Positions 8,369 through 52,026 of a stretch of DNA of 64,000 nucleotides are shown here, one piece after another. How positions within the stretch are numbered: the stretch's first letter is position 1; each line of letters opens with the position of its first letter. The notes beneath the pieces were generated by a model. It did no database searches. It had not been told where the DNA came from and saw nothing but the letters and a program-made list of their open reading frames with translations. This stretch comes from Deltaproteobacteria bacterium (GTDB lineage Bacteria > Desulfobacterota > GWC2-55-46 > UBA9637 > GWC2-42-11). The stretch is taken from NCBI GenBank assembly GCA_016223005.1, contig JACRPW010000044.1, forward strand, positions 627 through 64,626, read 5' to 3'. A program made the translations under genes and the position numbers.

Positions 8369-8417
8369 ACCTGAAGGTTTGAGTTACAAACCCTGTGCAA
8401 GTCTGTAACTCAAGGCT

Positions 8418-9962
8418 TTAGCCTTGATATTCATTTAAAACATTTGGCAGGCTCTTCAAAAGGTCTGTTGCGAGCATTCCAATCTTGCCGATTTTTTCTG
8501 TAACACAATCACCTGCAAGTCCATGCAGATACACACCAAGTCTTGCTGCATCTATAGATGAATAACCCTGCGCAATAAAACCTGCAATTATCCCTGTTAA
8601 AACATCTCCTGTGCCTGCTGTTGCCATACCGGAATTCCCTGTCATATTTATATAGACCCTGCCAGATGGCTCTGCAATTAGAGTCCTTGCACCCTTTAAT
8701 ACAACAATAACATTATTTTTAGTTGCAGCCTTTGATGCAATGTTTATTCTGTCAGACTGGACATCCCTTGCAGATATACCTAGTAACTTTGCCATCTCTC
8801 CCGGGTGTGGAGTTAAAACGATTGGTGCATTTGCATCCTTCAATATATCCAAAACTCCCCTTAACACATTTACCCCATCAGCATCAATGACCATAGGTAT
8901 CTTAATTTTCTGAACAAGTTTTATGACAAGTTCCTTTATATCTGAATTAGTAGTAAGACCCGGACCTATTGCAATCGCCTCTTTATCTAAAGATAGCGCC
9001 TTGATTTTGTCAAACGACATACTACCCATTGTCTTTGCCTTTGTTTCAGGAAGGGGCTCTGTCATAACCTCTGTGAGTTTTTTCTCCATAATATTATTAA
9101 GGCTTTTGGGTATTCCGAGTGTAACAAGCCCTGTTCCAACCCTCATGGCACCCAAACAAGTCATTGCTGCTGCCCCTGTTTTGCCAACAGAACCTGCCAG
9201 AACAAGGAGGTGACCGAAACTCCCTTTGTGAGAGTTTTCAGGTCTTTTCTTTAAAACACCTTTTATAAAATCAGGAGCAATGGTTTCATATTTAATGCCT
9301 GCTTCATCAATGAGTTTTTTAGGTATGCCAATATCAACTATTTCCACTTCTCCTGCATGAGCAGCGCCGGGATATATAAATAGACCAAGTTTTGGAAGCG
9401 TCATAGTAATAGTTATATCTGCCTTGACACATGCCCCAAGCACATTGCCTGTTGATGCGTCAAGACCTGTTGGCACATCTATAGCAGCAACTGGTTTGCC
9501 AATAGAATTTATAAACTCTATGACCTTTCTATGGATACCCGTTATAGCATTTTCAAGACCTGTGCCAAAGATTGCATCAACGAGCAGATGGCTGTGCCTT
9601 ATCTGAGAGGCATGTTTTTTAATGTCATCTGCTGTTTTGACTGCATAAATCCTGCCGTCCATTTTTTCCCAGATTTCAAGATTTGTCTTTGCATCACCTT
9701 TAACTTGAGACTCCTCTCCTATAAGATATACGGTTATCTCTGCGCCGCCGCTCAAGTGTCTTGCAATTACAAAACCATCCCCGCCATTATTGCCCTTGCC
9801 TGCAAATATGCTGACCTTCTGCATATTGCCGCCATACCTTCTTAAGATAATTTCAGCAGCCCCTCTCCCTGCATTTTCCATCAGCACAATGCCGGGGATG
9901 CCGTACCTTTTAATAGCGGTCTCGTCAAGTAATCTCACTGTTCTTGCATCCGCAACCTTCAT
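8418..9962 (-). CDS. nnr: Bifunctional NAD(P)H-hydrate epimerase/dehydratase Nnr (YjeF N- and C-domains). The likely start is MKVADARTV. The listed ORF starts at 9998.
   Basis: The N-terminal YjeF-N domain (GKGNNGGDG) is followed by the carbohydrate-kinase-like C domain (GxGDVLTG). Confidence 0.85.
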   Translation of the reverse strand: MKVADARTVRLLDETAIKRYGIPGIVLMENAGRGAAEIILRRYGGNMQKVSIFAGKGNNGGDGFVIARHLSGGAEITVYLIGEESQVKGDAKTNLEIWEKMDGRIYAVKTADDIKKHASQIRHSHLLVDAIFGTGLENAITGIHRKVIEFINSIGKPVAAIDVPTGLDASTGNVLGACVKADITITMTLPKLGLFIYPGAAHAGEVEIVDIGIPKKLIDEAGIKYETIAPDFIKGVLKKRPENSHKGSFGHLLVLAGSVGKTGAAAMTCLGAMRVGTGLVTLGIPKSLNNIMEKKLTEVMTEPLPETKAKTMGSMSFDKIKALSLDKEAIAIGPGLTTNSDIKELVIKLVQKIKIPMVIDADGVNVLRGVLDILKDANAPIVLTPHPGEMAKLLGISARDVQSDRINIASKAATKNNVIVVLKGARTLIAEPSGRVYINMTGNSGMATAGTGDVLTGIIAGFIAQGYSSIDAARLGVYLHGLAGDCVTEKIGKIGMLATDLLKSLPNVLNEYQG

Positions 9963-11350: not shown

Positions 11351-11406
11351 AGTCTTACAAAAAGGTTTTCAAGGCTAAAGCCTTGAGTTACTGTAACTCA
11401 AAGTCT

Positions 11407-12591: not shown

Positions 12592-12677
12592 CTCCTTTTT
12601 ACTCGCTTTGCGAGAATTGTAAAATGGAAATTGTAAATTTTAAAATTCCCAATCTTCAATTTGCAATTTTCAATTAT

Positions 12678-14760: not shown

Positions 14761-15735
14761 TTAACCTTTATTCCTTACAGCCAAAAGCATCCTCTCAATA
14801 AGTTCTGTAAAATCTATGCCTGCACACCTTGCTGCCTTTGGCAGTAAACTCAGTTCTGTTAGACCAGGGACTGTGTTAAGTTCAAGAACATAGGGGTCAT
14901 TTTTTTTGTCAAGGCATACATCAACCCTTGCTGCGCCGCAGCACCCAAGGGCATTGTATGCATTAATGGCAGCCTCTTTTACCCTGCATTCAACCCCTTT
15001 CTCCAATGGTGCAGGCGCGATGTAATCTGTCATCCCTTTTGTATATTTTGACCTATAGTCATATAAACCTTTTTTGGGTTTTATCTCTACTACAGGCAAA
15101 GGTTCTCCGCTTAATATCCCTACAGTAACCTCCCTGCCCTGAATAAACCTTTCCAGGACAATCTTGTTATCAAACCTGAAGGCTTTTTTAATTGCCTTTT
15201 GCAAATCCTTTTTATCCTTTACAACAGTAAGCCCTATTGTTGAACCCTGCCTTGCAGGTTTTACTACAAGAGGAAATTTGTAATTTGTAGTTCGTAATTC
15301 GTAATTCTTAATTCCTAATTCGTAATTTCTTATAACCTGCCAATCAGGTGTTGGTATACCATGAAACCTAAAAATCTCCTTTGCTGCTGCCTTGTCAAAT
15401 GCCACTCCACTTGCAAGCACACCTGACCCTGTATATGGTATCCCCATTATCTCAAGGAGCCCCTGTATTGTGCCGTCTTCTCCATATTTGCCGTGTAGGG
15501 CGATAAATGCAAGTTTAATCTTCTTTTTCTCAATTACCTTTGCTGTATCCCTGCCTGCATCCACTGCAACCACTTTATAACCTTTACCCTTAAGCGCCTT
15601 ATATACAGCCATGCCTGAGCAGAGGGATACCTCCCTTTCAGATGACATCCCGCCCATCAAAACCCCTATTTTAAGTTTTTTTAAATTAGTAATTCGTAAT
15701 TCGTAATTCGTAATTTTTTTACTCCTCTCCGACAA
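14761..15735 (-). CDS. ddl: D-alanine--D-alanine ligase. It has a TTG start with a GAGGAGG SD. Heptamer-repeat peptides sit at the N-terminus (ITNYELRITN) and internally (NYELGIKNYELRTTNYKF).
   Basis: ATP-grasp Ddl motifs (KIGVLMGGMSSEREVSL, GSGVLASGVAFDK). The aattcgt-type repeats lie at 15684-15718 and 15275-15330. Confidence 0.92.
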   Translation of the reverse strand: MSERSKKITNYELRITNLKKLKIGVLMGGMSSEREVSLCSGMAVYKALKGKGYKVVAVDAGRDTAKVIEKKKIKLAFIALHGKYGEDGTIQGLLEIMGIPYTGSGVLASGVAFDKAAAKEIFRFHGIPTPDWQVIRNYELGIKNYELRTTNYKFPLVVKPARQGSTIGLTVVKDKKDLQKAIKKAFRFDNKIVLERFIQGREVTVGILSGEPLPVVEIKPKKGLYDYRSKYTKGMTDYIAPAPLEKGVECRVKEAAINAYNALGCCGAARVDVCLDKKNDPYVLELNTVPGLTELSLLPKAARCAGIDFTELIERMLLAVRNKG

Positions 15736-16660
15736 TCTTTATCTCCTCCTCAAGCAATACCCCTTTTTCCTTTAATACCCTATCCTTAATAATATTTATA
15801 AGTAACAGCACATCCTTTGTCTTTGCATCCCCAAGATTTACAATATAATTTGCGTGGACATCTGATACCATTGCATCACCTATCCTTGCACCCTTTAAAC
15901 CAACCTCATCTATGAGTTTGCCTGCGCAAAGCCCTTCAGGGTTTTTAAATATTGAGCCTGCATTCGGCAGGCGAACAGACTGGGTCTTTTCCCTCCTTTT
16001 AATAAATTCGTTCATTTGTTTTTCTATTATAGATACATCCCCTTTTTTAAATTTAAGATGAACCCTTGTAATTATATAATCCGGCTTAAGACTGCACGAC
16101 CTGTATGAAAAATGCAGTTCATCTCTTCTTATAAATATTTTACTGCCTCTTGTATCAGTCACATCAATCCCTGCCACAAGACTGCCTACATCAGCGCCGT
16201 ATGCACCTGCATTCATTGCCACTACCCCACCAATGGTTCCTGGTATTTGGACTGCAAATTCAAGCCCTGAAAGTCCCCTTTTACTACATTCATTCACAAT
16301 CTTTGCAAGTTTAACCCCTGCACCTGCGACCACATAGTCATCAGCCTGCCAGTATAAATCTTTAAATCCATCTGCGAGGTTTATTACAACACCCCTTATG
16401 CCGCCATCTCGGACAACAAGGTTTGTTCCAGCGCCAAGTAAAAAAACAGGGAAATCCTTTACATATGCAAACTTAAGTATCTCCTGAAGGTCATCTTCAT
16501 CCAGAGGAAACGCCATAACATCCGTAGGACCGCCTATTTTCATGGATGTCCACTCTTTCATCAGGACATCAAAGAGGATGCGTCCTTTGAAGTTGCAAGT
16601 TGCAAGCCTGCCCCTGTAAGCAGTAAACAGGGGTTGCAAGTTGCAAGTCTTATCTTTCAC
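15719..16660 (-). CDS. murB: UDP-N-acetylenolpyruvoylglucosamine reductase. The start is either GTG 16660 with a strong SD (which translates a repeat/hairpin element) or ATG 16561.
   Basis: FAD-binding MurB blocks (GGPTD, LLGAGTNLVV) and dcw position. Confidence 0.9.
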   Translation of the reverse strand: MKDKTCNLQPLFTAYRGRLATCNFKGRILFDVLMKEWTSMKIGGPTDVMAFPLDEDDLQEILKFAYVKDFPVFLLGAGTNLVVRDGGIRGVVINLADGFKDLYWQADDYVVAGAGVKLAKIVNECSKRGLSGLEFAVQIPGTIGGVVAMNAGAYGADVGSLVAGIDVTDTRGSKIFIRRDELHFSYRSCSLKPDYIITRVHLKFKKGDVSIIEKQMNEFIKRREKTQSVRLPNAGSIFKNPEGLCAGKLIDEVGLKGARIGDAMVSDVHANYIVNLGDAKTKDVLLLINIIKDRVLKEKGVLLEEEIKIVGEE

Positions 16661-16680: not shown

Positions 16681-18069
16681 TTAAACCTTGAAACTTGCAT
16701 CTTGAATCTTCTTTAAAATCTCATCCCCTATCTGCCATATATCACCTGCACCAAATGTAATAATCATATCATCAGACTTAACCATATCTGCCAGATAATT
16801 AGGCACATCCTTTTTATTAGGTATATACACAACATTTTTATGACCATACCCTTTGATTCCTTCAAACAAACCTTTACCTGTTACACCTTCAACCTTGCCC
16901 TCTCCGGCAGGGTATATATCAGTGAGTATGAGGATGTCTGCATCATTAAATGCAGAGAGAAATTCATTAAATAGGTCTTTTGTTCGTGTGTAGCGATGCG
17001 GCTGAAACACAGCGATAACCCGTTTATTCCAGCCGTCCTTTGCTGCCTTAAGGGTCGCCTTAATCTCCTCTGGATGGTGTCCATAATCATCAATAACTAT
17101 AACATCATCCACTGTCCCTCTTATCTGAAACCTCCGTTCAACGCCGCTAAAATCCTTAAGCCCATTTTTAATATCATCAAAATCCAAGCCGAGTTCTATA
17201 GCAACTGCGGCTGCAGCAAGGCAGTTATATACATTGTGGAGTCCAGGGGTATGAGTTAGAACGCAGCCAATTTTATCTGCCCTGTTCCATATTTCAAAGG
17301 ATGTTTCCATCCCATTAAATGAAATCCCTTTCGCATGATAGTCTGCCTGTGCAAAAAGCCCATAAGTTACATGTCTCCTCTCCACCTTTGGAATCAAAGA
17401 CTGCACATTTGGATGGTCAAGACACAAGACACTTAAACCATAAAACGGCACCTTGTTTATAAATGAGAGATAGGCACCTTTGACTTCGTCCATATCTTTA
17501 TAATGGTCCATGTGCTCCCTGTCTATATTTGTTACGACAGCAATTACAGGAGATAGTTTTACAAATGTCCCATCGCTTTCATCAGCCTCTGCAACAAGGA
17601 ACTCCCCGCTTCCAAGTTTTGCATTGGTTGCCATACTATTAAGCCTGCCGCCTATAACAACAGTGGGATCCATGCCAGCGATACTGAGTATCGTTGCAAT
17701 GATTGAGGTGGTCGTTGTCTTCCCATGCGTCCCTGCAACCAAAATCCCGTATTTCATCCGCATTAGTTCTGCAAGCATCTCTGCCCTTGGAATAACAGGC
17801 AAAAGTCTTTCATGGGCATGCCTTATCTCAGGGTTGTCCTCTTTCACTGCTGAGGAATAGACCACAACATCAGCGCCATCTATATTCTCTTTCTTATGGG
17901 ATATATGCACTGCTGCACCAAGAGATGCCAGCCGCTTTGTTATAGAAGATTCTTTCGCATCTGAGCCTGTAATCTTATATCCAAGGTTTAGAAGCACCTC
18001 TGCAATCCCGCTCATGCCTATTCCGCCTATCCCAACAAAATGTATATGTTTAATCCTCCCTTTATACAT
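16681..18069 (-). CDS. murC: UDP-N-acetylmuramate--L-alanine ligase
   Basis: IHFVGIGGIGMSGIAEVL N-terminus and GTHGKTTTTS P-loop. Confidence 0.95.
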   Translation of the reverse strand: MYKGRIKHIHFVGIGGIGMSGIAEVLLNLGYKITGSDAKESSITKRLASLGAAVHISHKKENIDGADVVVYSSAVKEDNPEIRHAHERLLPVIPRAEMLAELMRMKYGILVAGTHGKTTTTSIIATILSIAGMDPTVVIGGRLNSMATNAKLGSGEFLVAEADESDGTFVKLSPVIAVVTNIDREHMDHYKDMDEVKGAYLSFINKVPFYGLSVLCLDHPNVQSLIPKVERRHVTYGLFAQADYHAKGISFNGMETSFEIWNRADKIGCVLTHTPGLHNVYNCLAAAAVAIELGLDFDDIKNGLKDFSGVERRFQIRGTVDDVIVIDDYGHHPEEIKATLKAAKDGWNKRVIAVFQPHRYTRTKDLFNEFLSAFNDADILILTDIYPAGEGKVEGVTGKGLFEGIKGYGHKNVVYIPNKKDVPNYLADMVKSDDMIITFGAGDIWQIGDEILKKIQDASFKV

Positions 18070-19139
18070 GCATCCCTCTATAAATATCTTCTACAATAAT
18101 ACTAGCCGCATCAGGCATTCCCAATTGGTGTGCCCTTTCCTCAATCTCTTTTATCTTTACTAAATTTTCATAAAGTGAAGTCAATGCATGGGCAAGTTTT
18201 GCCCCATCCAGTTCTTCCTGTTTGAACATGACAGCAGCGCCTCTGTCTGCAAGATACCTTGCATTAACCTCCTGATGGTTGTCCGCAGCAAATGGATACG
18301 GGATAAGGATCGATGCCTTGCCAAGCGCCGTAATCTCTGCAATACTTGTTGCACCGCTCCTACAGATAATCAAGTCTGCCATTTTGTATGCATCTGCCAT
18401 ATCGTCAATAAAATTAAACACATTAGTTTTGAGTTTTGAGTTTATTGTATGTTTCTTTCACCCTCTCATAATCCTCTTCACCTGTCTGGTGGATGATATT
18501 TATTGAGCAATGTTTAAGATATTCCAGCGACTCAAGAAATATTGAGTTTATTGCCTTTGCACCTTGACTGCCTCCAAAAACCAGAATGGTGAATCCTTCG
18601 CCTTTCGCCTTTCGCCTTTCGCCTTTCGCCTTTAGTATTTCCTTCCTCACAGGATTTCCTGAAACTACCACCTTGCCCTTTGGAAAATATTTTTTTGCAT
18701 CAGGAAATGCAACAAATACCCTGTCAACAAACCTCCCAAGGTATCTGTTCGTAATGCCCGGCAGGGTATTTTGTTCAAGGATTATTGTCATAACCTTCAT
18801 AATCTTTGCAGCCGCTACAACTGGAAAGGCACTATACCCGCCTGCACCTACTACAAGGTCAGGCATATATCTTCTAATCAACTTTATAGATTTAAAAATC
18901 CCCATAAGTGCCTTTAAAATGGAAATCGCCCTATTTAATAATCCCTTTCCTTTCACACCTCCAACATCTAATGTCTCAAGATGGAAACCATATTTGTAGA
19001 GTATCTTTGCCTCCAGACCCTTCTTGCTCCCTATAAATGTAATCTCATTTCCAGAATCCCTTTCCTTAAAGATTTCTGCCAGTGCAATCGCTGGAAATAA
19101 ATGTCCTCCGGTTCCGCCTCCAGTTAGTATAATTTTCAA
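18062..19139 (-). CDS. murG: MurG glycosyltransferase. It is encoded as two ORFs in different frames (18423..19139 for the N-domain, 18062..18421 for the C-domain), joined at a 3-unit aaactca heptamer tract. Deleting one 7-nt unit restores a single frame.
   Basis: The N-ORF has GGGTGGHLFPAIALA. The C-ORF has FIDDMADAYKMADLIICRSGA, the conserved MurG C-terminal motif. The frames abut at 18424-18444. Confidence 0.85.
18424..18444. repeat. Heptamer tandem repeat (minus-strand aaactca x3) at the murG frame junction
   Basis: The + strand reads tagtttt gagtttt gagttta. Confidence 0.9.
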
Positions 19140-20245: not shown

Positions 20246-21663
20246 AGCGCCTCTACCAATTTTTTAAAGACATCCCCTCTCTCCTCATAACTCTTAAACA
20301 TATCAAAACTTGAACATGCAGGGGAAAGGAGGACTATGTCTCCGCTTTTTGCTGTATTGTGTGCCTTTTTAACAGCATCTTCCATTGACAAGGCGAATAC
20401 AGTCTCTGTGCAGGCACCCAGCGCCTTTTTCATCTTCTGTCTTGCCTCTCCTATAAGTATCAAGAGTTTGACCTTTTCCTTTATCAAATCTTTAAGCACA
20501 CTGTAGTCGCCGCCTTTGTCCTTACCACCTGCTATTAGGACAATTGGCGCATTAAACCCCTCCAGACACTTCTGCAAGGCGCCGATATTTGTGCCTTTTG
20601 AATCATCGTAATAGGAAACACCGTTGATCTCTCTTGCAAACTCTACCCTGTGCGGCAGGGCATCAAAGGCATTTATGATTTTGATTACTTCATCATCCTT
20701 TAAACCGCACATTTTTGCTGCCGCTATTACAGCCATTATGTTTTCTATGTTATGGATACCCTTAAGTTTGAAACCGACAGTTGGATATATTTCTTTTGCG
20801 CCATCAAGAGAATAAACAATCCTGTTATCCTTATAATAAACCCCCTCTTCCAGAACATGGGTGCTGCTGAAAGGGATGATACGGATTTGAGATTTGAGAT
20901 TTGAGATTTGAGATTTTATAACCGGGTCATCTATATTCACAACCGCAATATCCCCTTGCCCCTGATTTTTGAATATATTAAATTTTGCATCCGCATATTC
21001 CTTAAAATTTGCGTATCTGTCCAGATGGTCCTCGGTAATGTTCAGAAGTATAGAAATATACGGCTTAAACCGTCTTATGCCCTCCAGTTGAAAACTGCTT
21101 ACCTCTGCTACCACATAATCAGACCTTTCTTTTCCCATGGCATAGTCAATCAGAGGAGTACCAATATTGCCGCCCACAAAGACATCTCTGCCTGCATCAC
21201 TCAAAACCCTGCCCAGCAGTGCTGTGGTTGTAGTTTTGCCATTTGTTCCTGTAACAGCAATAATAGGGGTGTCTATAAAATTATATGCCAGTTCAATCTC
21301 GCTTATAACCTCAATACCTTTCTTTCTTGCCCCCTGTATAGGTTCTATACTTGACGGCACACCCGGGCTTAAGATTATAAGGTCTGCCTCTGTAAAAATA
21401 TCTGCCGGGTGTTTACCTGCTGCAACCTTTACCCCTTCCATGTCATCTGAATAAGGCAGGTCTTCTATTGGTTTTAAGTCTGTTACAGTAACAACTGCCC
21501 CCTTTTCCTTCAGGAACCTTATGGTAGAAAGTCCTGTAGATGCAAGACCGACAACAAGGACATGCTTGCCTTTCAGGTCAAACTGATTAATGCGAGAAAC
21601 GATGTAACGCGGGAAACGATGTAAGGTTTCCTGCCTTTCCTGCCTTTCCCGCCTTTCTCGCAT
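20242..21663 (-). CDS. murD: UDP-N-acetylmuramoylalanine--D-glutamate ligase. The ATG 21663 start with a GAGGTG SD gives a repeat-encoded N-terminal extension (MRERRERQERQETLHRF). There is an internal KSQISNLKSQI heptamer insertion.
   Basis: Mur ligase blocks (GTNGKTTTTAL). The gatttga x4 repeat lies at 20884-20911. Confidence 0.92.
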   Translation of the reverse strand: MRERRERQERQETLHRFPRYIVSRINQFDLKGKHVLVVGLASTGLSTIRFLKEKGAVVTVTDLKPIEDLPYSDDMEGVKVAAGKHPADIFTEADLIILSPGVPSSIEPIQGARKKGIEVISEIELAYNFIDTPIIAVTGTNGKTTTTALLGRVLSDAGRDVFVGGNIGTPLIDYAMGKERSDYVVAEVSSFQLEGIRRFKPYISILLNITEDHLDRYANFKEYADAKFNIFKNQGQGDIAVVNIDDPVIKSQISNLKSQIRIIPFSSTHVLEEGVYYKDNRIVYSLDGAKEIYPTVGFKLKGIHNIENIMAVIAAAKMCGLKDDEVIKIINAFDALPHRVEFAREINGVSYYDDSKGTNIGALQKCLEGFNAPIVLIAGGKDKGGDYSVLKDLIKEKVKLLILIGEARQKMKKALGACTETVFALSMEDAVKKAHNTAKSGDIVLLSPACSSFDMFKSYEERGDVFKKLVEAL

Positions 21664-24039: not shown

Positions 24040-24060
24040 TGTCCACTGACACTGACACTA
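23994..24060. repeat. Long hairpin whose arms are themselves tandem tgtcag(t) repeats (agtgtcagtgtcagt ... actgacactgacact) in the murF-murE spacer. The right arm overlaps the murE stop.
   Basis: The two arms form a 15-nt inverted repeat with no mismatches and a ~22-nt loop. Confidence 0.85.
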
Positions 24061-25548
24061 TTCATTATTCATTGCCTTTCTAACTTCTTCCACATCATCA
24101 AATGGTATCTTTTTATCACCGATAATTTGATATTTTTCATGCCCTTTTCCGGCAATAACTATAAAATCCCCTGCCTCTGCAATAGTTACTGCCTTTTCAA
24201 TTGCCTCTTTCCTATCAGGAATTATCATGTAGTCTTGACCCTTGACCCCTGCCTCTATCTCCTTTATAATTGCAAGCGGGTCTTCATCTCTCGGATTGTC
24301 AGATGTAATTATTGTAATATTGGAGAACCTTGCTGCAATTTCCCCCATAATGGGTCTCTTGCCTCTATCCCTGTTACCACCGCAGCCAAACACTGTGATT
24401 ACCCTTGCCCCTGCCACATCCCTTATTGTTGTAAGAAGCCTTTCAAGTGCATCACCTGTATGGGCATAGTCAATAACTGCCTGAAAGCCTTTCTTTGACG
24501 AAACCCTTTCAATCCTGCCTTCCACAGTTTTAAGATTTGAGATGCCTTTTTCAATGACATCTATTTTCAAACCCAATCCGATCCCGGCACCAACCGCTGC
24601 CATTATATTTTGCAAGTTATGCTTGCCTAAAAGTTTTGATGAGATATGAATACTGCCAATAGGTGTTGATAAAGAAGCCTCAATTCCGTTATCTGTAAAA
24701 TCCATTTTTTTAGGGAATATATTGCCCATTGCCTCTGCGTTAAGACTATATTCAATAGTTTTGACTTTTGACTTCGGGGCACCCACGATAGTGGGTCGTT
24801 TGACTTTTAATAATCTTCCCCATTCATCATCTATGTTAATTACTGCAAAACAATCTTCTGACTGCGGCAGAAACTCCTCAAACAGTCTTGCCTTGCTCTC
24901 AAAATAATCCTCCATAGTCTTGTGATAATCAAGGTGGTCCTGTGTAAGGTTTGTAAATACCCCTCCCTTAAAGATACAGCCGTCCACCCTCTTCTGGGAA
25001 AGGGCATGTGATGAGACCTCCATAACACAGTTGGTAACACCATTATCCGCCATATCTTTTAAGAGCCTCTGCAAATCAGGAGACTCAGGTGTTGTATGGG
25101 ATGCATCCAGTATCTTCCCCCTGTATCTGTAATTTATTGTGCCTATCACACCCGATTCCAGACCCGCCTGTTTAAGTATAGATTCAATCAGAAATGTCGT
25201 TGTTGTCTTGCCATTTGTTCCGGTAACACCTACAAGATTGAGTTTTCTTGAAGGCTCTCCATAAAACCTGCATGCAAGTTTTGCCATCGCATCTCTTGAA
25301 TCAGGCACAATAATCTCTGGGACTTTAACAGCACTGTCTATCCTTTCTGATACAATTGCTGCTGCACCATTTTTCACTGCATCAGGAATAAAGTTATAGC
25401 CATCTGTATTCTCCCCTTTTAGCGCTGCGAACAGGGAACCCTTTTTTACATCTCTGGAGTTATATGCAATACCCTTTATCTCTATATCCTCATTTAAGTT
25501 TTGAATTTCAAATGGTGATAAAACTTCTAATAAATCTTTTAATTTCAC
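24058..25548 (-). CDS. murE: UDP-MurNAc-L-Ala-D-Glu--2,6-diaminopimelate ligase
   Basis: Mur ligase GVTGTNGKTTTT, with a DNPR motif in the C-terminal domain. Confidence 0.93.
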   Translation of the reverse strand: MKLKDLLEVLSPFEIQNLNEDIEIKGIAYNSRDVKKGSLFAALKGENTDGYNFIPDAVKNGAAAIVSERIDSAVKVPEIIVPDSRDAMAKLACRFYGEPSRKLNLVGVTGTNGKTTTTFLIESILKQAGLESGVIGTINYRYRGKILDASHTTPESPDLQRLLKDMADNGVTNCVMEVSSHALSQKRVDGCIFKGGVFTNLTQDHLDYHKTMEDYFESKARLFEEFLPQSEDCFAVINIDDEWGRLLKVKRPTIVGAPKSKVKTIEYSLNAEAMGNIFPKKMDFTDNGIEASLSTPIGSIHISSKLLGKHNLQNIMAAVGAGIGLGLKIDVIEKGISNLKTVEGRIERVSSKKGFQAVIDYAHTGDALERLLTTIRDVAGARVITVFGCGGNRDRGKRPIMGEIAARFSNITIITSDNPRDEDPLAIIKEIEAGVKGQDYMIIPDRKEAIEKAVTIAEAGDFIVIAGKGHEKYQIIGDKKIPFDDVEEVRKAMNNE

Positions 25549-25560: not shown

Positions 25561-25611
25561 CTTTCGCCTTTCGCCGTGAAAAGCATGCTTTTCACCCTTA
25601 CGCCTTTAGCC
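25561..25611. repeat. Mini-palindrome element: cgccttt-type direct repeats flanking the palindrome gtgaaaagcatgcttttcac (murE-ftsI spacer). It is homologous to 50666-50710.
   Basis: The 20-nt palindrome is identical in both copies, and the flanks are related. Confidence 0.9.
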
Positions 25612-25615
25612 TGCC

Positions 25616-27589
25616 TCACTGAAATCTCACCTCACACACAACACCTGGGCTGAGATTTGCTCCAGGCATCGGGCTCTGATAAAATGCCCTGCCGCTCCCA
25701 ACAACCTTTACCTCCATAGGTATTTCCCTTAAAATCTTAAGAACCTGCCTGATTGTCTTGTCTTTCAAGTCAGGCATTGCATAATTTCCTTCATCTGAGT
25801 AACTATCAAAAGCAGCACTGCTGTCTTCAAAGAACCTTTTATTAGAAGTGCTAACAAAGGAATCACTTACATATCTTTCTGCCTTTCCGTCATTTGTATA
25901 AATGCCAAGATATGGCAAGACCTGTTTTGAAATCTCTCTAAAAACAGGCGCAGCAACCTGTCCGCCGTAAAAGACCCCGCGCGGTTCATCCAAGATGATA
26001 AGGATAACTATCCCCGGATTATCTGCTGGCACAAATCCTATAAATGAACTCATATATCTGTCTTCCAGGTACCCTCCTGTTAAAAGGTTTGCCTTCTGCG
26101 CGGTTCCTGTCTTGCCTGCAACTTCAAAACCATCTACCTGCGCCTTAATACCTGACCCTCCGGTATTTGTTACTGTTTTTAAGACCTCTGTAACCTTTTT
26201 TGCCGTGTCTTCGCTTATTACGCGTCTTTGAATCTCAGGGGTAAACTCTTTTACTATCTTGCCTTCGCTATCAATAATTCTTTTGACTATGATTGGTTTC
26301 ATAAGATAACCGCCATTTGCAATTGATGAAAATGCGGCGGCGAGTTGAATGCCTGTAATAGAAATCCCTTGTCCAAATGATATTGTATCAATAGAAACAC
26401 CTGACCATCTTTTTGGGTGCTGGACACTGCCTGCTATTTCACCCGGCAGGTCAATATTTGCCTTTGAACCAAACCCAAAACCCTTTATATATCTATAGAA
26501 TGCCTCCTTGCCCAGTTTTTCACCAATCTTTGCCGCACCTATATTGCTTGAATGTCTTATTATGTCCGTTACAGAAAGCCATCCAAATTTCCTGTCGTGT
26601 GCATCATGGATTACCCTGTCAAAAACCTTATATTCACCGTTCTCGCAAAAAAATATATCTGTTTGTTTTGCAACTCCTTCCTCAAATGCTGCTGCTATCA
26701 GAAAGGTCTTGAATGTCGAGCCTGGTTCAAACGCGTCTGAAACCAGCCTGTTTTTCCAGAGGTGCGCACGATACTGCAAGAAGGTATTTGGGTCAAAAGA
26801 AGGCAGGTCTGCCATAGCAAGAACCTCACCCGTTTTAGGGTCCATGACCATTGCCGTGCCTCCCTTTGCCCCTGTTGATGCAACAGCCTTTCCCAACTCC
26901 TTTTCTGTTATATATTGAACAGTCTTGTCAATTGTAAGGACAATATCCATACCTCTGGATATCCTTACCCTGTCCACATTATTATTCAGTGTTATGGCAT
27001 CTCCGTTGGCATCTTTCTCATCAATAATGACCCTTCCGCTGCCCTGAAGATAAGCATCAAACTTAAATTCTATGCCCTCCAGGCCGTTTGAGTCAAGTCC
27101 TGTGAAACCTATGATATCACTTGCCAGCCGAAAATTCGGATAGACCCTTTTATCTTCTGTCAGGATACCTACACCCTTTATCTTCAACTCCTTCCTTTCA
27201 GAAATCTTTTGAAAATCAACCTTTCTTTTTATCCACACAAACGGCTTATCTCTATTTATCTTCTCTATTATCTCACTCTTGTTCATCGCAGTTACAGGTG
27301 CAAGCGCCTTCACAACATCACCACGGTTTTCAATATGCTGGGGCTGTACATAAATAGAAGCAGCATCCATAGAAACAGCCATATCTTTCATGTTTCTGTC
27401 ATATATCGTGCCGCGCCTCGGTAAAAGTGTTTCCTCTTTCAATCGCTGTTTTAATGCAATCGCCTTAAATTTTGGACTGTCGACAACCTGAAATTGAAAT
27501 GCCCGTATAAAAACAATAGAAAATGCCACAAAAAAAAGGAGCATCGCTATAAATATTCTGAACTTGAGCCATGTCTTAAACCTGTTCAT
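25616..27589 (-). CDS. ftsI: Peptidoglycan transpeptidase FtsI/PBP (class B penicillin-binding protein)
   Basis: N-terminal TM segment, dimerisation domain, and the STFK, SSN and KTGT transpeptidase motifs. Confidence 0.93.
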   Translation of the reverse strand: MNRFKTWLKFRIFIAMLLFFVAFSIVFIRAFQFQVVDSPKFKAIALKQRLKEETLLPRRGTIYDRNMKDMAVSMDAASIYVQPQHIENRGDVVKALAPVTAMNKSEIIEKINRDKPFVWIKRKVDFQKISERKELKIKGVGILTEDKRVYPNFRLASDIIGFTGLDSNGLEGIEFKFDAYLQGSGRVIIDEKDANGDAITLNNNVDRVRISRGMDIVLTIDKTVQYITEKELGKAVASTGAKGGTAMVMDPKTGEVLAMADLPSFDPNTFLQYRAHLWKNRLVSDAFEPGSTFKTFLIAAAFEEGVAKQTDIFFCENGEYKVFDRVIHDAHDRKFGWLSVTDIIRHSSNIGAAKIGEKLGKEAFYRYIKGFGFGSKANIDLPGEIAGSVQHPKRWSGVSIDTISFGQGISITGIQLAAAFSSIANGGYLMKPIIVKRIIDSEGKIVKEFTPEIQRRVISEDTAKKVTEVLKTVTNTGGSGIKAQVDGFEVAGKTGTAQKANLLTGGYLEDRYMSSFIGFVPADNPGIVILIILDEPRGVFYGGQVAAPVFREISKQVLPYLGIYTNDGKAERYVSDSFVSTSNKRFFEDSSAAFDSYSDEGNYAMPDLKDKTIRQVLKILREIPMEVKVVGSGRAFYQSPMPGANLSPGVVCEVRFQ

Positions 27590-30344: not shown

Positions 30345-32441
30345 ATGGAAATCCCCATTGATAAAAAAAGAAATATTACTGTCATTGGCCACAGCGGGGC
30401 AGGCAAGACCACTTTGATGGAATCTATGCTGTTTGATACAAAATCCACTGATAAAATCGGCAGGGTAGATAATGGCTCTTCTGTTTTGGATTTTGAGCCA
30501 GAAGAGATTAAGAGAAAAATCACAATATCCGCAAAGGTGCATTGCTACGAGTGGGATAAGTGTTTAGTAAATATTATAGATTCGCCCGGATATTCGGATT
30601 TTATCCATGATACCAGAGATTGTCTTATGGTCGCAGGCGGAGCAGTCGTTATCCTGTCTGCCATATCCGGGGTAAAGGTTGCCACAGAAGAGGTATGGAA
30701 ATTTGCAGACGAATACGCAGTTTCAAGGATTGCCTTTGTAAACAAGATGGATAAGGAATATGCAAATTTTTTAAGGGCTGTAGATGATATGGAAAAGGTA
30801 TTAAATGTCAAAGGTGTCCCTGTGCAGATTCCGATTGGCATCGCCGAGGATTTTAAAGGTGTGGTTGACCTTATGCACATGAAGGCACTTATTTACAAGG
30901 ATGACCTCTCTGGCACTTACGAAACAAAGGATATCCCTCAGGAACTTATGGAAGATGCAGGGAAGATGCGTGAGCATATGATTGAACTGATTGCTGAAAT
31001 AGATGATGCGCTTACTGAAAAGTATCTAAATGGTGAGAAGTTAACAATAGATGAACTCACAATGGGGTTAAAAGAAGGCACCCTCGCAAGGAGATTTGTG
31101 CCTGTGGTATGCGGTTCTGCATTCAAGAATATAGGCATACAGTCTTTAATGGACATGATAAATATGTGCCTGCCATCACCCATGGAAAAGGGGATTGTGC
31201 GGGGTGTAATAAAAGGTAAAAATCCTGTAACAGGTGAAGAGGTTGAAAGGCATCCGTCTCTTGATGAGCCTTTTTCTGCATTTGTATTCAAAACTACGGT
31301 TGACCCATATACAGGAAGATTAAATATCTTCCGCATACATTCAGGCAGGATAAAATCAGATTCTACGGTCTTAAATTCTTCTAATGGTGTAAAGGAAAAG
31401 ATAAGTCACCTCTATCGTGTTCAGGGGAAAAAACTGAAAGAGATAGGGACAGCAGGTGCAGGTGATATTGTTGCTGTTGCAAAGTTTAAGGATACTGGCA
31501 CAGGCGACACCCTTTGTGATGAGCATCACCCTGTCATTTTTCCAACAATACCACCTGTTAATGCCGTGCTTTCGTATGCAATCACTCCAAAGACAAAATC
31601 TGATGAAGATAAACTGCACCCTGCCATATTAAAACTTATGGACGAAGACCCGACAATAAAATTCTCAAGAGAAGATGAGACAAAGGAGTTTATACTATCG
31701 GGTGTGGGGCAGGTTCATCTTGAGGTGTCTATTGACAAGATGAAAAGGAAATACGGGGTTGATGTTGAATTAAATATCCCGCGGGTGCCTTACAAAGAGA
31801 CAATCCGCTCATCTGTAAAAATACAGGGTAGATATAAAAAACAATCAGGCGGCAGGGGGCAATACGGCGACTGCTGGTTGGAATTAAAGCCGATGCCAAG
31901 AGGCGCAGGATTTGAATTTATTGACAATATCGTAGGCGGTGTTATTCCAAGACAGTATATCCCTGCTGTTGAAAAGGGCGTTGTTGAGGCAATGCACAGC
32001 GGCATACTTGCAGGCTATCCTGCTGTTGATGTTCAGGTTACTTTGTATGATGGCTCATACCACTCTGTTGACTCCTCTGAGATGGCATTTAAAATCGCAG
32101 GCTCAATGGCTTTTAAAAAGGCTATGGAGATGGCTCATCCTGTCCTTCTTGAACCCGTAATGAGAGTGGAAATAAATGTGCCTGATGAAAGTATGGGTGA
32201 TGTTATAGGAGACATAAACTCAAGACGGGGTAAGATACAAGGTGTTGAACCAAAGGCAAACAGCCAGACAATAAAGGCAGTTGTGCCAATGGCAGAGGTT
32301 CTGAAATATACATCAGATTTAAGAGGCATGACAGGTGACAGGGGCATGTTTACAATGGAGTTTTCGCATTATGAAGATGTGCCGACACACCTTTCACAGA
32401 AGATAATAATTGCTGCAAAGGCAGGGAAAGAGAAGGAATAG
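30345..32441 (+). CDS. Elongation factor G family GTPase (EF-G paralog). The likely start is MEIPIDKKRN. The listed ORF starts at 30312.
   Basis: GHSGAGKTTL and DSPGYSDF G-motifs. The five-domain EF-G architecture runs through the C-terminal domains. Confidence 0.85.
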   Translation: MEIPIDKKRNITVIGHSGAGKTTLMESMLFDTKSTDKIGRVDNGSSVLDFEPEEIKRKITISAKVHCYEWDKCLVNIIDSPGYSDFIHDTRDCLMVAGGAVVILSAISGVKVATEEVWKFADEYAVSRIAFVNKMDKEYANFLRAVDDMEKVLNVKGVPVQIPIGIAEDFKGVVDLMHMKALIYKDDLSGTYETKDIPQELMEDAGKMREHMIELIAEIDDALTEKYLNGEKLTIDELTMGLKEGTLARRFVPVVCGSAFKNIGIQSLMDMINMCLPSPMEKGIVRGVIKGKNPVTGEEVERHPSLDEPFSAFVFKTTVDPYTGRLNIFRIHSGRIKSDSTVLNSSNGVKEKISHLYRVQGKKLKEIGTAGAGDIVAVAKFKDTGTGDTLCDEHHPVIFPTIPPVNAVLSYAITPKTKSDEDKLHPAILKLMDEDPTIKFSREDETKEFILSGVGQVHLEVSIDKMKRKYGVDVELNIPRVPYKETIRSSVKIQGRYKKQSGGRGQYGDCWLELKPMPRGAGFEFIDNIVGGVIPRQYIPAVEKGVVEAMHSGILAGYPAVDVQVTLYDGSYHSVDSSEMAFKIAGSMAFKKAMEMAHPVLLEPVMRVEINVPDESMGDVIGDINSRRGKIQGVEPKANSQTIKAVVPMAEVLKYTSDLRGMTGDRGMFTMEFSHYEDVPTHLSQKIIIAAKAGKEKE

Positions 32442-32765
32442 ATACAATCTATACTCTATCAGGGTTCGCGATACACTTACTATCTTTACATATCGGCTTC
32501 CCAGAGTTACTGATTTAGGTGTTGGTGCTGGTTTCTGAACAGGTGGTTGAACTACTTTTGGTGGCGGTGGTGGTGCCGGTGGTTGTATTTTCTTTTGCTC
32601 AAGTGCTTTTTGCATCTGTATCAACTGTGCCTCTGCATTTTTCAGGACACTTTGCATTTCTTGTATTTGCTGCGGAGTCGCTTGAGCACCCTGTAAATTC
32701 TTGTTAGGCACTGAAAATATTACAACTACAAATACAATTAAAAAATTTGCAAATAACCTTTTCAT
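32394..32765 (-). CDS. Hypothetical small secreted protein (signal peptide, coiled coil, Pro-rich PPAPPPPPK tract)
   Basis: ORF with an N-terminal hydrophobic signal-like segment. It overlaps the EF-G 3' end convergently by ~48 nt. No homology call was made. Confidence 0.35.
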   Translation of the reverse strand: MKRLFANFLIVFVVVIFSVPNKNLQGAQATPQQIQEMQSVLKNAEAQLIQMQKALEQKKIQPPAPPPPPKVVQPPVQKPAPTPKSVTLGSRYVKIVSVSRTLIEYRLYLFLLFPCLCSNYYLL

Positions 32766-33109
32766 AATCTAACCCTCCTGTTTTTAACAGGGTGTTGAAA
32801 AAATCTTCTCCAACGGAAAAAGTGTCATGCCCGCGAAAGCGGGCATCCAGTAACATATTGAAAAAACTGCACGTCAAAGGGGGTCAAATCTTTTCCTTTC
32901 TATGCAGGAAAAGGGGACAGATTTATTTAATTGACAGGAAAAGGGGAGACAGGAAAATCTTTTCCTTTCTATGGGGTATCCTCCTTTTATGTGTTCTTTT
33001 GGCTATGGGAAGGATACCCCTTTCTTATCTCTAACACAAACTATGATACATTACCGCTACTTTTAAAGTTTGGTATGTTTAACAATTCTGTGATAGTATT
33101 TAGCTGCGT

Positions 33110-33185
33110 CGGATTTCACCTCCCGGTATGTATTGTTGTCAGCAAAACTATACCAGATACGGCTGAAATCCGATGCACTTTTTTA
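33110..33185 (+). terminator. Intrinsic-terminator-like structure: 10-bp stem tcggatttca/tgaaatccga enclosing a sub-hairpin, followed by TTTTTT
   Basis: Inverted repeat and T-run read directly. It sits in a 600-nt gene-poor region ~235 nt upstream of the OppF-like ATPase start. Confidence 0.5.
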
Positions 33186-33419
33186 TCTCATTGATATTGC
33201 ACGGCTTTTAGTCATATGTTACACTAATACCAACTTTTTTATGAAAGAACCAACAATTTTCTCATATGAACTTGAACTTAATAATGAATTGATTAGAAAG
33301 AGCGCCTAACAATCAAATCCATGAGACGGTGCGCTAGCCCGCCTGTGATTTAAGCCGTTATTATGATAAATTATGAACGAAATAGGGGAAGTGTCCCTGT
33401 ATTTTCTGTATTTTGTAAT

Positions 33420-34409
33420 ATGGGTAACTTACTTACAATAAAAAACTTAAAAAAGCACTTCCATGTGAGCAGGGGGATATTTGATAGACACGGCAGCACA
33501 GTGTATGCTGTTGACGGTGTGGGTCTATCTGTAAAAAAGGGCGAGACCTTTGGTCTTGTCGGAGAATCAGGGTGCGGCAAATCAACACTTGCAAGGGTTG
33601 TGATGCGGCTTATAGAACCAACAGGTGGGAGTATCATCTTCGATGGTCGTGATATATCATCTCTATCGCAAAGAGAGATGATTCCGATTAGAAGAAAGGT
33701 GCAGATGATATTTCAAGACCCTTATGCATCTTTAAACCCGAGGATGACAGTTGGGGATATTATTGGAGAGGCACTTATAATACACAAACTTGCAGAAAGT
33801 AATGTTCAGAAGAATAATATTGTTGCAAAACTTATGGATGTGGTTGGTCTTCCAAAGGATTCTATAAACCGCTACCCGCATGAATTCAGCGGAGGTCAGA
33901 GACAGAGAGTCGGCATAGCAAGGGCGCTTGCAGTAAAACCTGATTTAATCATTGCAGATGAACCTATATCTGCCCTTGATGTATCTATTCAGGCACAGAT
34001 TCTAAACTTGTTACAGGATTTGCAGAAGGAATTTAATCTCACATACCTTTTTATAGCCCATGATTTAAGGGTTGTGGAGTATATAAGCGACAGGATTGCG
34101 GTTATGTATCTTGGAAAGATCGTTGAACTCGGAAATGCCAGCGATGTTTATAATCACCCTGTCCATCCATATACTGAGTCGCTTTTGTCTTCTATACCAA
34201 TACTGGGGACAGATTTGAAATCTGTCCCCACTGTCCACAAAAAAAAGAAGAGGATAATACTTAAAGGTGACATACCAAGCCCTATGAACCCGCCTTCAGG
34301 CTGTGCATTTCACACAAGGTGTATATATGCACAGGAAAGGTGCAAGATAGAAGCACCGCTGCTGACAGAAAGGGATGGAAGGGTTGCGTCATGCCACTTC
34401 CCGTTATAA
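33420..34409 (+). CDS. ABC transporter ATP-binding protein, oligopeptide/dipeptide (OppF/DppF-like) family with a Cys-containing C-terminal extension. No cognate permease is adjacent. The listed ORF starts at 33363.
   Basis: Walker A GESGCGKST, ABC signature LSGGQRQRV, Walker B IIADEP, and a C-terminal CAFHTRC...C tail. Confidence 0.85.
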   Translation: MGNLLTIKNLKKHFHVSRGIFDRHGSTVYAVDGVGLSVKKGETFGLVGESGCGKSTLARVVMRLIEPTGGSIIFDGRDISSLSQREMIPIRRKVQMIFQDPYASLNPRMTVGDIIGEALIIHKLAESNVQKNNIVAKLMDVVGLPKDSINRYPHEFSGGQRQRVGIARALAVKPDLIIADEPISALDVSIQAQILNLLQDLQKEFNLTYLFIAHDLRVVEYISDRIAVMYLGKIVELGNASDVYNHPVHPYTESLLSSIPILGTDLKSVPTVHKKKKRIILKGDIPSPMNPPSGCAFHTRCIYAQERCKIEAPLLTERDGRVASCHFPL

Positions 34410-49403: not shown

Positions 49404-49479
49404 TGGAGCGGGCGACGGGATTCGAACCCGCGACCCCAACCTTGGCAAGGTTGTGCTCTACCAGCTGAGCTACACCCGC
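49404..49479 (-). tRNA. tRNA-Gly (anticodon GCC), CCA encoded
   Basis: The reverse complement folds as a cloverleaf: GCGGGUG acceptor, anticodon loop UUGCCAA, T-loop GGUUCGAAUCC. Confidence 0.9.
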
Positions 49480-50356: not shown

Positions 50357-52026
50357 TGTCAAATAAATCAATAATAGCATCTGTTATATCAGGCACTATT
50401 ATGATATTTGCATTCCCGCCTTTTGATATATGGGTTATAGGTTGGTTTGGCATGGCGCCTTTATTCTTTGCCATTTATGATAAAAAGCCGTTGCAGGCAT
50501 TTGCACTGGGCTTTATCTGGGGCATTGTTTTTTTTCTCGGCACTGTTTACTGGGTTGTAAACTCAATGGTAAATTACGGTGGTGTGCCTGTATGGGCAAG
50601 TGTGCTGGCGCTTCTGCTTCTTGTAATTGTCTTAAGCCTTTACCCTGCTGTATTCGCTTATTTTACCTTTAGCCGTGAAAAGCATGCTTTTCACCCTTCA
50701 GCCTTTCGCCTGATTTTTATCCCTTTCCTCTGGGTCAGTCTTGAATTTGTGCGGACATATCTTTTTACAGGCTTTCCTTGGGTCTTACTTGGTTATTCAC
50801 AAACAGCATTCCTCCCAATAATGCAGATTGCTGATATAACAGGTGTCTATGGTGTATCGTTTTTGATAATCATGGTCAATGTTTTTCTATTCAATTGCGG
50901 ACTGCAGATTGCAGATTGCGGATTTAAAATTAAAATTTCTAAAATGGAATGGATTATAGTATTTTCGGTTTTAATCCTTGTCTTTGGTTATGGTCATTTA
51001 AGGATTGGACAGATTGATAATTTAACTAAAAACTGGAGGCAGATTAAGATAGGTATTGCCCAGGGCAATATAGATCAGGCGCAGAAATGGGACCCTGCAC
51101 ATCAGGAAGGAACGATAGATATTTACAGGCAGATTAGTATAGACATTGCACAAAATGAAAAGGACATTGACCTTATTATATGGCCAGAAACAGCCACACC
51201 ATTTTATCTTCAGTCTGATGAAAAATTCGGTCCGCTTATCTTTGATATAGCAAAAACTCTGGCAGTAAACCTTATTACAGGAAGTCCTGCGCATGAGTAT
51301 ACATCTGATGGTAAAACTATAAATTACTATAACAGCGTGTTTCTGATTTCAAAGCAGGGAGGCATTGTCAATAGATACGATAAAGTCCATCTCGTGCCTT
51401 TCGGCGAATATGTCCCTTTTAAAAGATTTCTTCCATTTGAAAAACTTGTTGCAGGTGTCGGGGATTTCAGTTCAGGAAAAAACTTCAAGCCCCTTGCATT
51501 AAATAATGATGATACATTTGGCATCCTCATATGTTTTGAGGCAATATTTCCTGACATAGCAAGGCAGCTTTTGAAAAATGGCGCAGACTTTTTAATCACA
51601 GTAACAAATGATGCATGGTTTGGAAGGTCATCTGCACCATATCAGCACCTATCCCAATCATTAGTGCGGGCTGTTGAAGGCAGGACATTTTTAATCCGCT
51701 CTGCCAATACAGGTATAAGCGCAGTGATTGACCCTGTTGGAAGGATAAAGGTTAAAAGCGGACTGTTTACAAGAGAAGGTTTAGTAGATACAATATCATT
51801 AAAAGAAAGGTCTTTCACAACATTTTATACCCGATATGGCGATGTGTTTGCCATTGGATGCATATTCATCTCAATAGTTATATTTATTACTAATGCAAGA
51901 AAAAGGGGGCAGACTTGCCTATTGACATTTGCCCTCTTTATCTTCTCTATCACCTTTTTTACCTCTGCCGTCCCCTTTTCTTATTTTTCTTATTGGTCCC
52001 CTTTTCTTGTTTTCTTATTATCCTAA
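50356..52026 (+). CDS. lnt: Apolipoprotein N-acyltransferase (CN-hydrolase). It carries an in-frame mini-palindrome insertion (FSREKHAFHPSAFRL) and a heptamer-repeat insertion (GLQIADCGFKIKI).
   Basis: Multi-TM N-terminal domain plus CN-hydrolase with E...K...C (ILICFEAIFPD). The repeats lie at 50666-50710 and 50894-50935. Confidence 0.88.
   Translation: MSNKSIIASVISGTIMIFAFPPFDIWVIGWFGMAPLFFAIYDKKPLQAFALGFIWGIVFFLGTVYWVVNSMVNYGGVPVWASVLALLLLVIVLSLYPAVFAYFTFSREKHAFHPSAFRLIFIPFLWVSLEFVRTYLFTGFPWVLLGYSQTAFLPIMQIADITGVYGVSFLIIMVNVFLFNCGLQIADCGFKIKISKMEWIIVFSVLILVFGYGHLRIGQIDNLTKNWRQIKIGIAQGNIDQAQKWDPAHQEGTIDIYRQISIDIAQNEKDIDLIIWPETATPFYLQSDEKFGPLIFDIAKTLAVNLITGSPAHEYTSDGKTINYYNSVFLISKQGGIVNRYDKVHLVPFGEYVPFKRFLPFEKLVAGVGDFSSGKNFKPLALNNDDTFGILICFEAIFPDIARQLLKNGADFLITVTNDAWFGRSSAPYQHLSQSLVRAVEGRTFLIRSANTGISAVIDPVGRIKVKSGLFTREGLVDTISLKERSFTTFYTRYGDVFAIGCIFISIVIFITNARKRGQTCLLTFALFIFSITFFTSAVPFSYFSYWSPFLVFLLS
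50666..50710. repeat. Second copy of the gtgaaaagcatgcttttcac mini-palindrome element, inside lnt and translated in-frame
   Basis: Same palindrome with cctttagcc / ccttcagcctttcgcc flanks. Confidence 0.9.

Follow-up and report, generated by a model that had tools for sequence, protein, structure and literature searches.

The 64,000-nt stretch of DNA analyzed here (the window) comes from an uncultured groundwater "Deltaproteobacteria" lineage (Thermodesulfobacteriota-like), has a GC content of 40.7%, and contains two copies of a perfect 20-nt palindrome, each nested in an array of 7-nt tandem repeats. Copy 1 lies between ftsI (25616-27589, minus strand; Transpeptidase, PBP_dimer, and PASTA domains by Pfam) and murE (24058-25548, minus strand; Mur ligase domains by Pfam), where the spacer between the ftsI stop at 25616 and the murE start at 25548 is mostly filled by the palindrome and its flanks. 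Copy 2 lies within lnt (50356-52026, plus strand), an open reading frame (ORF) of 556 amino acids with the Pfam domains LNT_N and CN_hydrolase. The features at the two sites are as follows (loci from relatives are designated by L numbers):

25562..25575, plus strand: left heptamer units (TTTCGCC, twice) of the array in the ftsI-murE spacer, which are in register with the right units after removal of 22 nt
25576..25595, no strand: copy 1 of the palindrome, GTGAAAAGCATGCTTTTCAC, intergenic, in a spacer of 67 nt as compared to 1 nt in L014 and 6 nt in L015
25596..25611, plus strand: an extra CC (candidate 2-nt target duplication) and the right units TTACGCC TTTAGCC; a deletion of 20+2 nt gives 6/7 period-7 matches
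50661..50674, plus strand: left heptamer units TTTTACC TTTAGCC in lnt
50675..50694, no strand: copy 2 of the palindrome, read in frame within lnt, where it specifies R107-H113 together with C50674
50695..50710, plus strand: an extra CC and the right units TTCAGCC TTTCGCC in lnt; at the equivalent codons, L001 has TTTAGCC directly followed by TTCAGCC

The palindrome is made of two perfectly complementary 10-nt arms. It begins with GTGA, finishes with TCAC, and has an A/T-rich stem; as RNA, it is predicted to form an 8-bp stem with a 4-nt loop. Besides the two exact copies, the window has no match to it, even if three mismatches are allowed, and none would be expected (100 shuffles). Two of the palindrome's three frames are free of stop codons and the remaining frame has TGA; across copy 2, lnt reads F105-S-R-E-K-H-A-F-H-P-S-A-F-R-L119 with the frame unbroken. 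A first-pass annotation of this DNA had reported that the palindrome occurs twice and that the lnt copy is in frame, and both statements are correct.

The palindrome and one CC form a discrete 22-nt unit that is inserted into existing C-rich heptamer microsatellites. At both sites in the window, the heptamer units have the same (direct) orientation on either side of the palindrome, and removing the palindrome with one CC leaves a continuous array: TTTCGCC TTTCGCC TTACGCC TTTAGCC at copy 1 and TTTTACC TTTAGCC TTCAGCC TTTCGCC at copy 2. We know of four copies in all, including two outside the window that are described below. In three of the four, the 20+2-nt deletion gives 6 of 7 period-7 matches across the junction, and other offsets give 0 to 3; in the fourth (at L005), a 22-nt deletion ties with a 21-nt deletion, at 4 of 7 matches. 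All four copies have the same insertion point, between a unit that ends in CC and a unit that starts with YT (CC^YT). The four are identical to each other, lie at unrelated loci, and are in arrays of two families, TTTCGCC-type and CTTGCCC-type; the identity ends at the palindrome plus CC, and the flanking units differ. The repeat flanks that the first-pass annotation described are real, but they are not part of a composite element. Instead, they belong to a period-7 array that predates the insertion. In 166 kb of DNA from the clade, we found no diverged copies or half-sites within 4 substitutions.

Relatives have the corresponding sites without the palindrome. In L001, whose Lnt is 72% identical at the amino acid level, the equivalent codons of lnt read TTTAGCC TTCAGCC TTCAGCC TTCAGCC TTCAGCC, and the first two of these are precisely the units found to either side of the insert in the window. 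The net length difference in lnt is +15 nt, that is, +22 nt minus one 7-nt unit, so the reading frame is kept. Elsewhere in the clade, the lnt site is occupied by (CTCTCGA)x4 (L002) or by (TCTCACA)n with a different hairpin (L003). An interdomain linker in a Usp protein provides a second pair of filled and unfilled sites: L007 has (GGGGCAA)n with the palindrome and L019 has a pure (AGGGTCA)x4 array. The flanking units in lnt are identical in the relative, whereas the units of the Usp arrays differ between genomes.

Within Lnt, the insert maps to a disordered surface loop, which answers the question, raised in the first-pass annotation, of whether it occupies such a loop. In the AlphaFold2 model (mean predicted local distance difference test [pLDDT] score of 81.5), the palindrome-encoded residues R107-H113 are in a non-helical loop (residues 105-114) between helices 79-104 and 115-136, and pLDDT is below 50 at residues 108-112. 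The catalytic nitrilase domain of Lnt, between transmembrane helices 7 and 8 (TM7 and TM8), is periplasmic, so helix parity predicts that the TM4-TM5 loop is cytoplasmic, and likewise the TM6-TM7 loop, which carries a second array. Conservation of the segment across phyla, as native Lnt sequence, would have spoken against an insertion. We found that the loop is present in orthologues across phyla, that its sequence is not conserved among 20 orthologues, and that the closest orthologue lacks the palindrome. These results support the view that the palindrome is not native to Lnt but is a dispersed, inserted sequence. The loop in E. coli Lnt (by alignment to PDB 5VRG) is only 2 residues shorter; the array and palindrome overwrote a variable loop rather than merely lengthening it.

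When 185,579 species-representative genomes were scanned, the exact 20-mer was present at nine loci. Seven of these belong to other phyla; they either continue into longer hairpins that resemble terminators or have no heptamer flanks, and we rejected them as chance palindromes. The other two, L005 and L007, are from the assembly JACRNI01 and have the arrangement seen in the window, with CTTGCCC-type units, CC-palindrome-CC, and further units. Metagenome scans had no matches to the exact 20-mer; a loop-degenerate pattern with CC flanks had two matches, but these lack heptamer context and are thus unrelated.

The copy in L007 is in frame in a 421-amino-acid Usp/PCP_red protein, in the linker between domains (...GKRQGQG VKSMLFT GKGQEA...). 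This is a second case of the in-frame tolerance that the first-pass annotation had suggested from lnt, and the two proteins use different frames of the palindrome: Lnt reads EKHAFH, and Usp reads VKSMLFT. The copy in L005 is 13 nt past the stop codon of thiC and upstream of a gene for a TlpA-like lipoprotein. With the NCBI start of that gene, the palindrome falls within the coding sequence, but the signal peptide points to a start farther downstream. Overall, two copies are in coding loops, one is intergenic, and one is ambiguous. Also at L005 (~6340-6430), two heptamer arrays, which read (CATCACG)n and (CTCACTG)n in the coding direction, encode most of the predicted signal peptide and lipobox (MHHASRITVLFLLTAYCSLLTVLTAC) of the TlpA-like lipoprotein.

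JACRNI01 was first taken to be a divergent genome, because its Lnt and MurD share only 72% and 68% identity with the window's proteins, and L005 and L007 would then show that a second genome shares the palindrome. No recorded protein was an exact match to the window's own Lnt or MurD. We withdrew this interpretation on the basis of protein identities and a pattern that indicates a composite bin. As compared to the metagenome-assembled genome (MAG) that contains the window, whose NCBI proteins include MBI5682582.1 and MBI5681961.1, L005 and L007 encode identical RNase R, TlpA, and BrnT, and identity is at least 90% for ThiC, AccC, and Usp. Some contigs of JACRNI01 encode proteins that match the window's MAG exactly, whereas the proteins of other contigs are only ~70% identical. 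JACRNI01 has two versions of Usp (L007 and L020). The window's Lnt and the L007 Usp are each outliers in their family, and the other versions in JACRNI01 group with a common set of relatives. Thus, JACRNI01 (GCA_016234925.1; L005, L007, L001, L016, and L020) seems to combine two related lineages in one bin, and, if the window's MAG is taken as a pure bin, protein identity would assign all four copies of the palindrome to the window's lineage.

The arrays that host the palindrome are part of a broader phenomenon: heptamer arrays are a trait of the whole lineage, they are sited in spacers and in permissive loops of housekeeping proteins, and their unit sequence turns over. Tandem Repeats Finder identified ~28 distinct period-7 arrays in the window, with units of many kinds. 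There are 12 perfect arrays of period 7, as compared to 0 to 4 for each other period from 4 to 12 and 0 to 1 in shuffled sequences, and the flanking arrays, being head to tail and enriched over both, are heptanucleotide simple sequence repeats (SSRs). By placement, 11 of the arrays are within ORFs (including ddl, murG, murD, murE, and lnt), 6 are at the ends of ORFs, and 11 are intergenic; just 8% of the window is noncoding. (Stop-free units were found in 10 of the 11 interior arrays, against a background of 59%, but we discarded this comparison as circular, since ORFs exclude stop codons.) Across independent assemblies, most loci from the clade have 2 to 15 arrays per 10 kb, and unrelated loci have 0 to 1.2; the exception is L004, a more distant locus of 4.4 kb with no arrays. 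When proteins from the division and cell wall (dcw) cluster were aligned with those of L014, L015, and L016, the arrays shared columns and differed in their units, both in a loop in the middle of MurD and at two sites in MurG. Because published heptamer SSRs are mainly intergenic and are rarer in coding DNA, the abundance of arrays inside genes here is unusual. Other arrays in the window, along with a second palindrome, are as follows:

15275-15327 and 15684-15715: arrays in ddl
16590..16648, plus strand: (AAGTTGC)n array at the murC-murB junction, cut by a different hairpin, CCCCTGT-N9-ACAGGGG (16611-16633); RNA fold z = -3.1
18425..18443, minus strand: (AAACTCA)x2.7 array, a microsatellite of the same class, located at the break in murG; it has no palindrome
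18597..18633, plus strand (murG is on the minus strand): (TTCGCCT)x5.3 array with 100% matches, without the palindrome; it encodes KAKGERRKAKGE in a variable loop of MurG, and orthologues have other units there
20884..20916, plus strand: (GATTTGA)x4.7 array in murD; it encodes KSQISNLKSQI, which supplants a native segment of the orthologues (kkwlknngtgik)
24234-24248 and 24759-24774: arrays in murE
34204..34230, no strand: second dispersed palindrome family, TGGGGACAGATTTGAAATCTGTCCCCA, intergenic, with a near-identical copy in frame in the Usp gene of L007
36134-36165, 38897-38930, and 39219-39237: further arrays inside conserved housekeeping genes
50894..50924, plus strand: second array in lnt (ATTGCAG x4.4), at the end of TM6 and in the TM6-TM7 loop

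Two of these arrays are in murG (18062-19139, minus strand). The first-pass annotation had noted the array at 18597-18633 and had linked it to the palindrome; the array is present, but it is not a member of a palindrome family, just one of the ~28 period-7 arrays. At the other array, murG is split into ORFs of 238 and 119 amino acids by a +1 frame change, and removing one AAACTCA unit or adding two regains an intact MurG of ~356 amino acids. At this site, the orthologues have in-frame arrays of other units, with period 7 in L014 and L015 and period 8 in L016. The split could be real slippage heterogeneity or an error in the MAG consensus.

Some of the arrays are associated with other hairpins. 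At the lnt loop site of L003 (1620-1700), TCCCCGA-N9-TCGGGGA is nested in (TCTCACA)n. This hairpin has a 7-bp stem and a 9-nt loop, as does the one at the murC-murB junction, which is likewise nested in a heptamer array. Separately, intergenic arrays of the AATTGNA type occur as inverted pairs at 12612-12671 and 59782-59873. Their arms are 30-40 nt long and 75-77% complementary, and they give long imperfect hairpins between genes.

The window and its relatives have other small repeats and several unusual features. The second palindrome family, GGGGACAGATTTGAAA(T/C)CTGTCCCC, is found at ~4190-4232 of L007, in a 12-amino-acid in-frame insertion near the N terminus of Usp, and an extra partial repeat in this copy gives a 13-bp stem. 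Two more dispersed hairpins each occur twice: CCCAAAAATAGACATTGATTTTTGGG at 62356-62385 and 63898-63923, and TCAAGGCT(TTT/AAA)AGCCTTGA, with the loop inverted, at 8410-8427 and 11369-11386. Perfect hairpins with stems of at least 8 bp number 36 in the window, as compared to 10-19 in simulations (~2.5-fold enrichment). A direct repeat of ~150 nt (1400-1560 and 2215-2375) bounds a BrnT-toxin module (Pfam BrnT_toxin; ORFs at 1584-1853 and 1831-2151, minus strand), and these repeats contain hairpins with GTTGGGT...AACCCAAC arms, which resemble the core and inverse-core motifs of integron attC sites. At the edge of the window, a 353-amino-acid ORF (249-1310, minus strand) matches Pfam REC1 (PF18501, an alpha-helical recognition lobe; E = 4.8e-31), a domain that is associated with Cas12a. 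The ORF is far shorter than Cas12a; it might be a remnant of a larger protein or else a separate small one. The ~2 kb at 32394-34318 has only short ORFs, with no match to Pfam or Rfam, and has hairpins at 32827-32846, 32890-32913, 33656-33682, and 34204-34230. RNA genes in the window include an SRP RNA (56354-56454) and tRNAs at 49407-49479 (minus strand) and 56165-56252.

How did the palindrome come to be in the arrays? We propose, with a probability of roughly 60%, that it is a non-autonomous insertion element of 20-22 nt, similar to the small dispersed repeats (SDRs) of the Nostocaceae, with CC^YT in C-rich heptamer arrays as its target and without a cellular function of its own. The palindrome would be copied in trans into the arrays, and the target would most plausibly be array DNA that becomes accessible, slipped or single-stranded, in the course of replication or repair. 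The insertion event would have left the duplicated CC, a 2-nt duplication, as its footprint. Selection would leave copies only in spacers or in disordered loops, and frame compatibility would arise from selection combined with changes in heptamer copy number; in lnt, the sum is +22 - 7 = +15 nt.

Several observations weigh against this proposal. The known copies number just four and are probably all from one lineage, which limits what can be said about copy number and about mobility over time. Pfam found no transposase, HUH/RAYT protein, or reverse transcriptase in 21 of the ~64 ORFs in the window (the dcw genes plus less obvious ones), and no mobility enzymes were among the called genes listed for most of the fetched clade loci. 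Precise excision in the relatives would be an alternative to insertion, which is nevertheless the more parsimonious of the two. Rather than a target duplication, the CC may belong to the element. Finally, 8 of 10 positions are shared between one arm of the palindrome plus CC (GCTTTTCACC) and the array sequence (GCCTTTCGCC), and given this match and the inverted pairs of arrays, it is plausible that the palindrome originated by fold-back within an array; it might then have spread by recombination.

Fold-back or template switching is the starting point of the first rival explanation, in which the palindrome was born once in an array and was spread, with no dedicated mobility, by ectopic gene conversion between similar heptamers. 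This would account for the lack of a transposase in the scanned sequence and for the location of every copy in C-rich arrays, whose similar units provide microhomology. However, the identity halts precisely at the palindrome plus CC: the adjacent units differ between copies at 1-2 of 7 nt and belong to two families, and the homology on each side is just ~14-20 nt and imperfect. Also, the murG array has the same unit as the window copies but lacks the palindrome. We consider gene conversion to be unlikely, but it is the rival that we take most seriously.

Second, an active and possibly enzyme-driven process might repeatedly overwrite spacers and permissive loops with heptamer arrays, including those of essential cell-wall genes, and seed hairpins in them, so that the palindrome would be just one of several substrates of a novel insertion machinery directed at hairpins or microsatellites, and slippage of the murG type might serve as an on/off or diversification switch in core genes. 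We view this as a rather doubtful explanation.

Third, the palindrome might be a selected cis-acting element, either an operator for a dimeric protein or an RNA hairpin with a role in processing, stability, or the coupling of ftsI and murE. A perfect palindrome with GTGA...TCAC ends would be typical of operators, the four copies are identical, and two of them are directly past a stop codon within operons; but two of the four are within coding loops of unrelated proteins, and relatives lack the palindrome at the orthologous sites. The RNA evidence is also divided. The 8-bp hairpin that is predicted in the lnt mRNA is modest (z = -2.4), and the fold of the ftsI-murE spacer is no better than that of shuffles (z = -1.18, not significant), and Rfam has no match at either palindrome site in the window. 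Neither window copy is followed by a run of T (or U): the palindrome is followed by CCTTACG or CCTTCAG on one strand and by GGCGAAAGG or GGCTAAAGG on the other. Thus, it is not an intrinsic terminator. Overall, a selected regulatory role seems improbable.

Fourth, a miniature transposon, similar to Rickettsia palindromic elements (RPEs) or to miniature transposable elements with inverted repeats (MITEs), might have evolved to insert in frame, with the heptamer flanks as its terminal repeats. In-frame copies are tolerated in two proteins, and there is a possible 2-nt target duplication. However, the flanks are direct instead of inverted, vary from copy to copy, and are present without the palindrome in relatives; the conserved unit is 20-22 nt, as compared to ~150 bp for RPEs (PMC10969869); and the in-frame copies, being read in different frames, do not encode a conserved peptide. 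This explanation is very improbable. It is hardly credible that the palindrome is native, a coincidence, or an artifact of assembly: the 20-mer is also in seven unrelated genomes, but as longer terminator-like hairpins or without heptamer flanks, no matches are expected in the window, two MAG assemblies that were deposited independently of each other both represent the Usp and thiC-tlpA copies, and the sequence of the Lnt loop is not conserved.

Whatever the mechanism, pairs of filled and unfilled sites at matching codons of conserved genes are clean material for studying it. The arrays may be the more surprising part of these results, with their recurrence in corresponding loops of essential orthologues and the one-unit slip that splits murG. 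Although 7-nt microsatellites are incompatible with the reading frame, they populate loops of the essential proteins MurG, MurD, Ddl, and Lnt, which is an unusual tolerance. This bears on the evolution of protein loops, on frameshift-prone "pseudogenes" in MAGs, on gene calling, and on the quality of binning.

Among known systems, MITEs have terminal inverted repeats and a target-site duplication and are ~50-500 bp long, whereas the whole element here is a single 20-nt palindrome, far below that range, with a possible 2-nt CC duplication. Repetitive extragenic palindromic (REP) elements are imperfect palindromes, with 5' GTAG in the classic families, that are extragenic, have hundreds of copies, and are linked to REP-associated tyrosine transposases (RAYTs). 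REPs and REPINs resemble the palindrome in that they are short and dispersed and are thought to be mobilized in trans via single-stranded hairpin DNA. However, two of the four copies of the palindrome are inside ORFs, it is perfect and starts with GTGA, and there is no Y1 transposase among the scanned ORFs of the window or the listed genes of most loci.

RPEs, which the first-pass annotation had offered as an analogy, share one key property with the palindrome: they insert in frame into unrelated housekeeping ORFs at sites that are compatible with the fold, as the palindrome does in the Lnt loop and the Usp linker. The rest of the analogy fails. RPEs are ~150 bp, form ten families, encode a conserved peptide, and number dozens per genome, with 44 insertions in R. 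conorii (PMC10969869); the palindrome is 20-22 nt, is read in two frames, and is tied to a microsatellite target, and RPEs have no such tandem-repeat context.

The arrays, as opposed to the palindrome, fit a known class. Heptamer SSRs are over-represented in many bacteria, mainly in intergenic regions and more rarely in coding regions (PMC4692102, PMC4679880); examples include TAACTGA in Beggiatoaceae (PMC4679880), GGGNATC in Xanthomonas and Nostoc (PMC4692102), and the cyanobacterial short tandemly repeated repetitive (STRR) sequences. We did not find any report of heptamer repeats from Deltaproteobacteria in the literature. Like those SSRs, the host arrays have a period of 7 and 2-8 units, their length and unit vary between close relatives at a given locus, and slippage is the presumed driver. 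Unlike them, at least 11 of the ~28 arrays are interior to ORFs, and they recur with other units at orthologous loops.

The closest precedent for the palindrome is the SDRs of the Nostocaceae, which are the best match by kind. In work by Elhai and colleagues from 2008, SDR1 to SDR8 of Nostoc punctiforme are reportedly 21-27 nt long, form hairpins, are often located in tandem heptameric repeats, and are inferred to be mobile. The palindrome (20-22 nt) is of similar size. It is also dispersed as identical copies, although four is low relative to Nostoc; it is nested in tandem heptamers, whose continuity is regained upon its removal (in three of the four copies, with a tie at L005); and it has a hairpin core, encodes no protein, and is judged to be mobile from filled and empty sites. 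There are also differences. First, the host is of a "Deltaproteobacteria" lineage and is not a cyanobacterium, so the palindrome would belong with the SDRs by kind and not by descent. Second, it is a perfect 20-nt palindrome, and two copies are in frame in coding sequences, one of them in the product of an essential gene (Lnt). SDRs are reported to be in none of the HIP1-enriched cyanobacterial genomes outside the Nostocaceae (PMC5861425), and PMC3116915 also refers to the SDR work. If the palindrome is confirmed genome-wide, then elements of ~20 nt that are nested in microsatellites would no longer be limited to the Nostocaceae but would be present in an unrelated phylum, which would favor a general mechanism over one that is specific to cyanobacteria. 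What would be new here, judging from these comparisons, is an SDR-like micro-insertion in heptamer microsatellites, outside of the cyanobacteria and within housekeeping genes.

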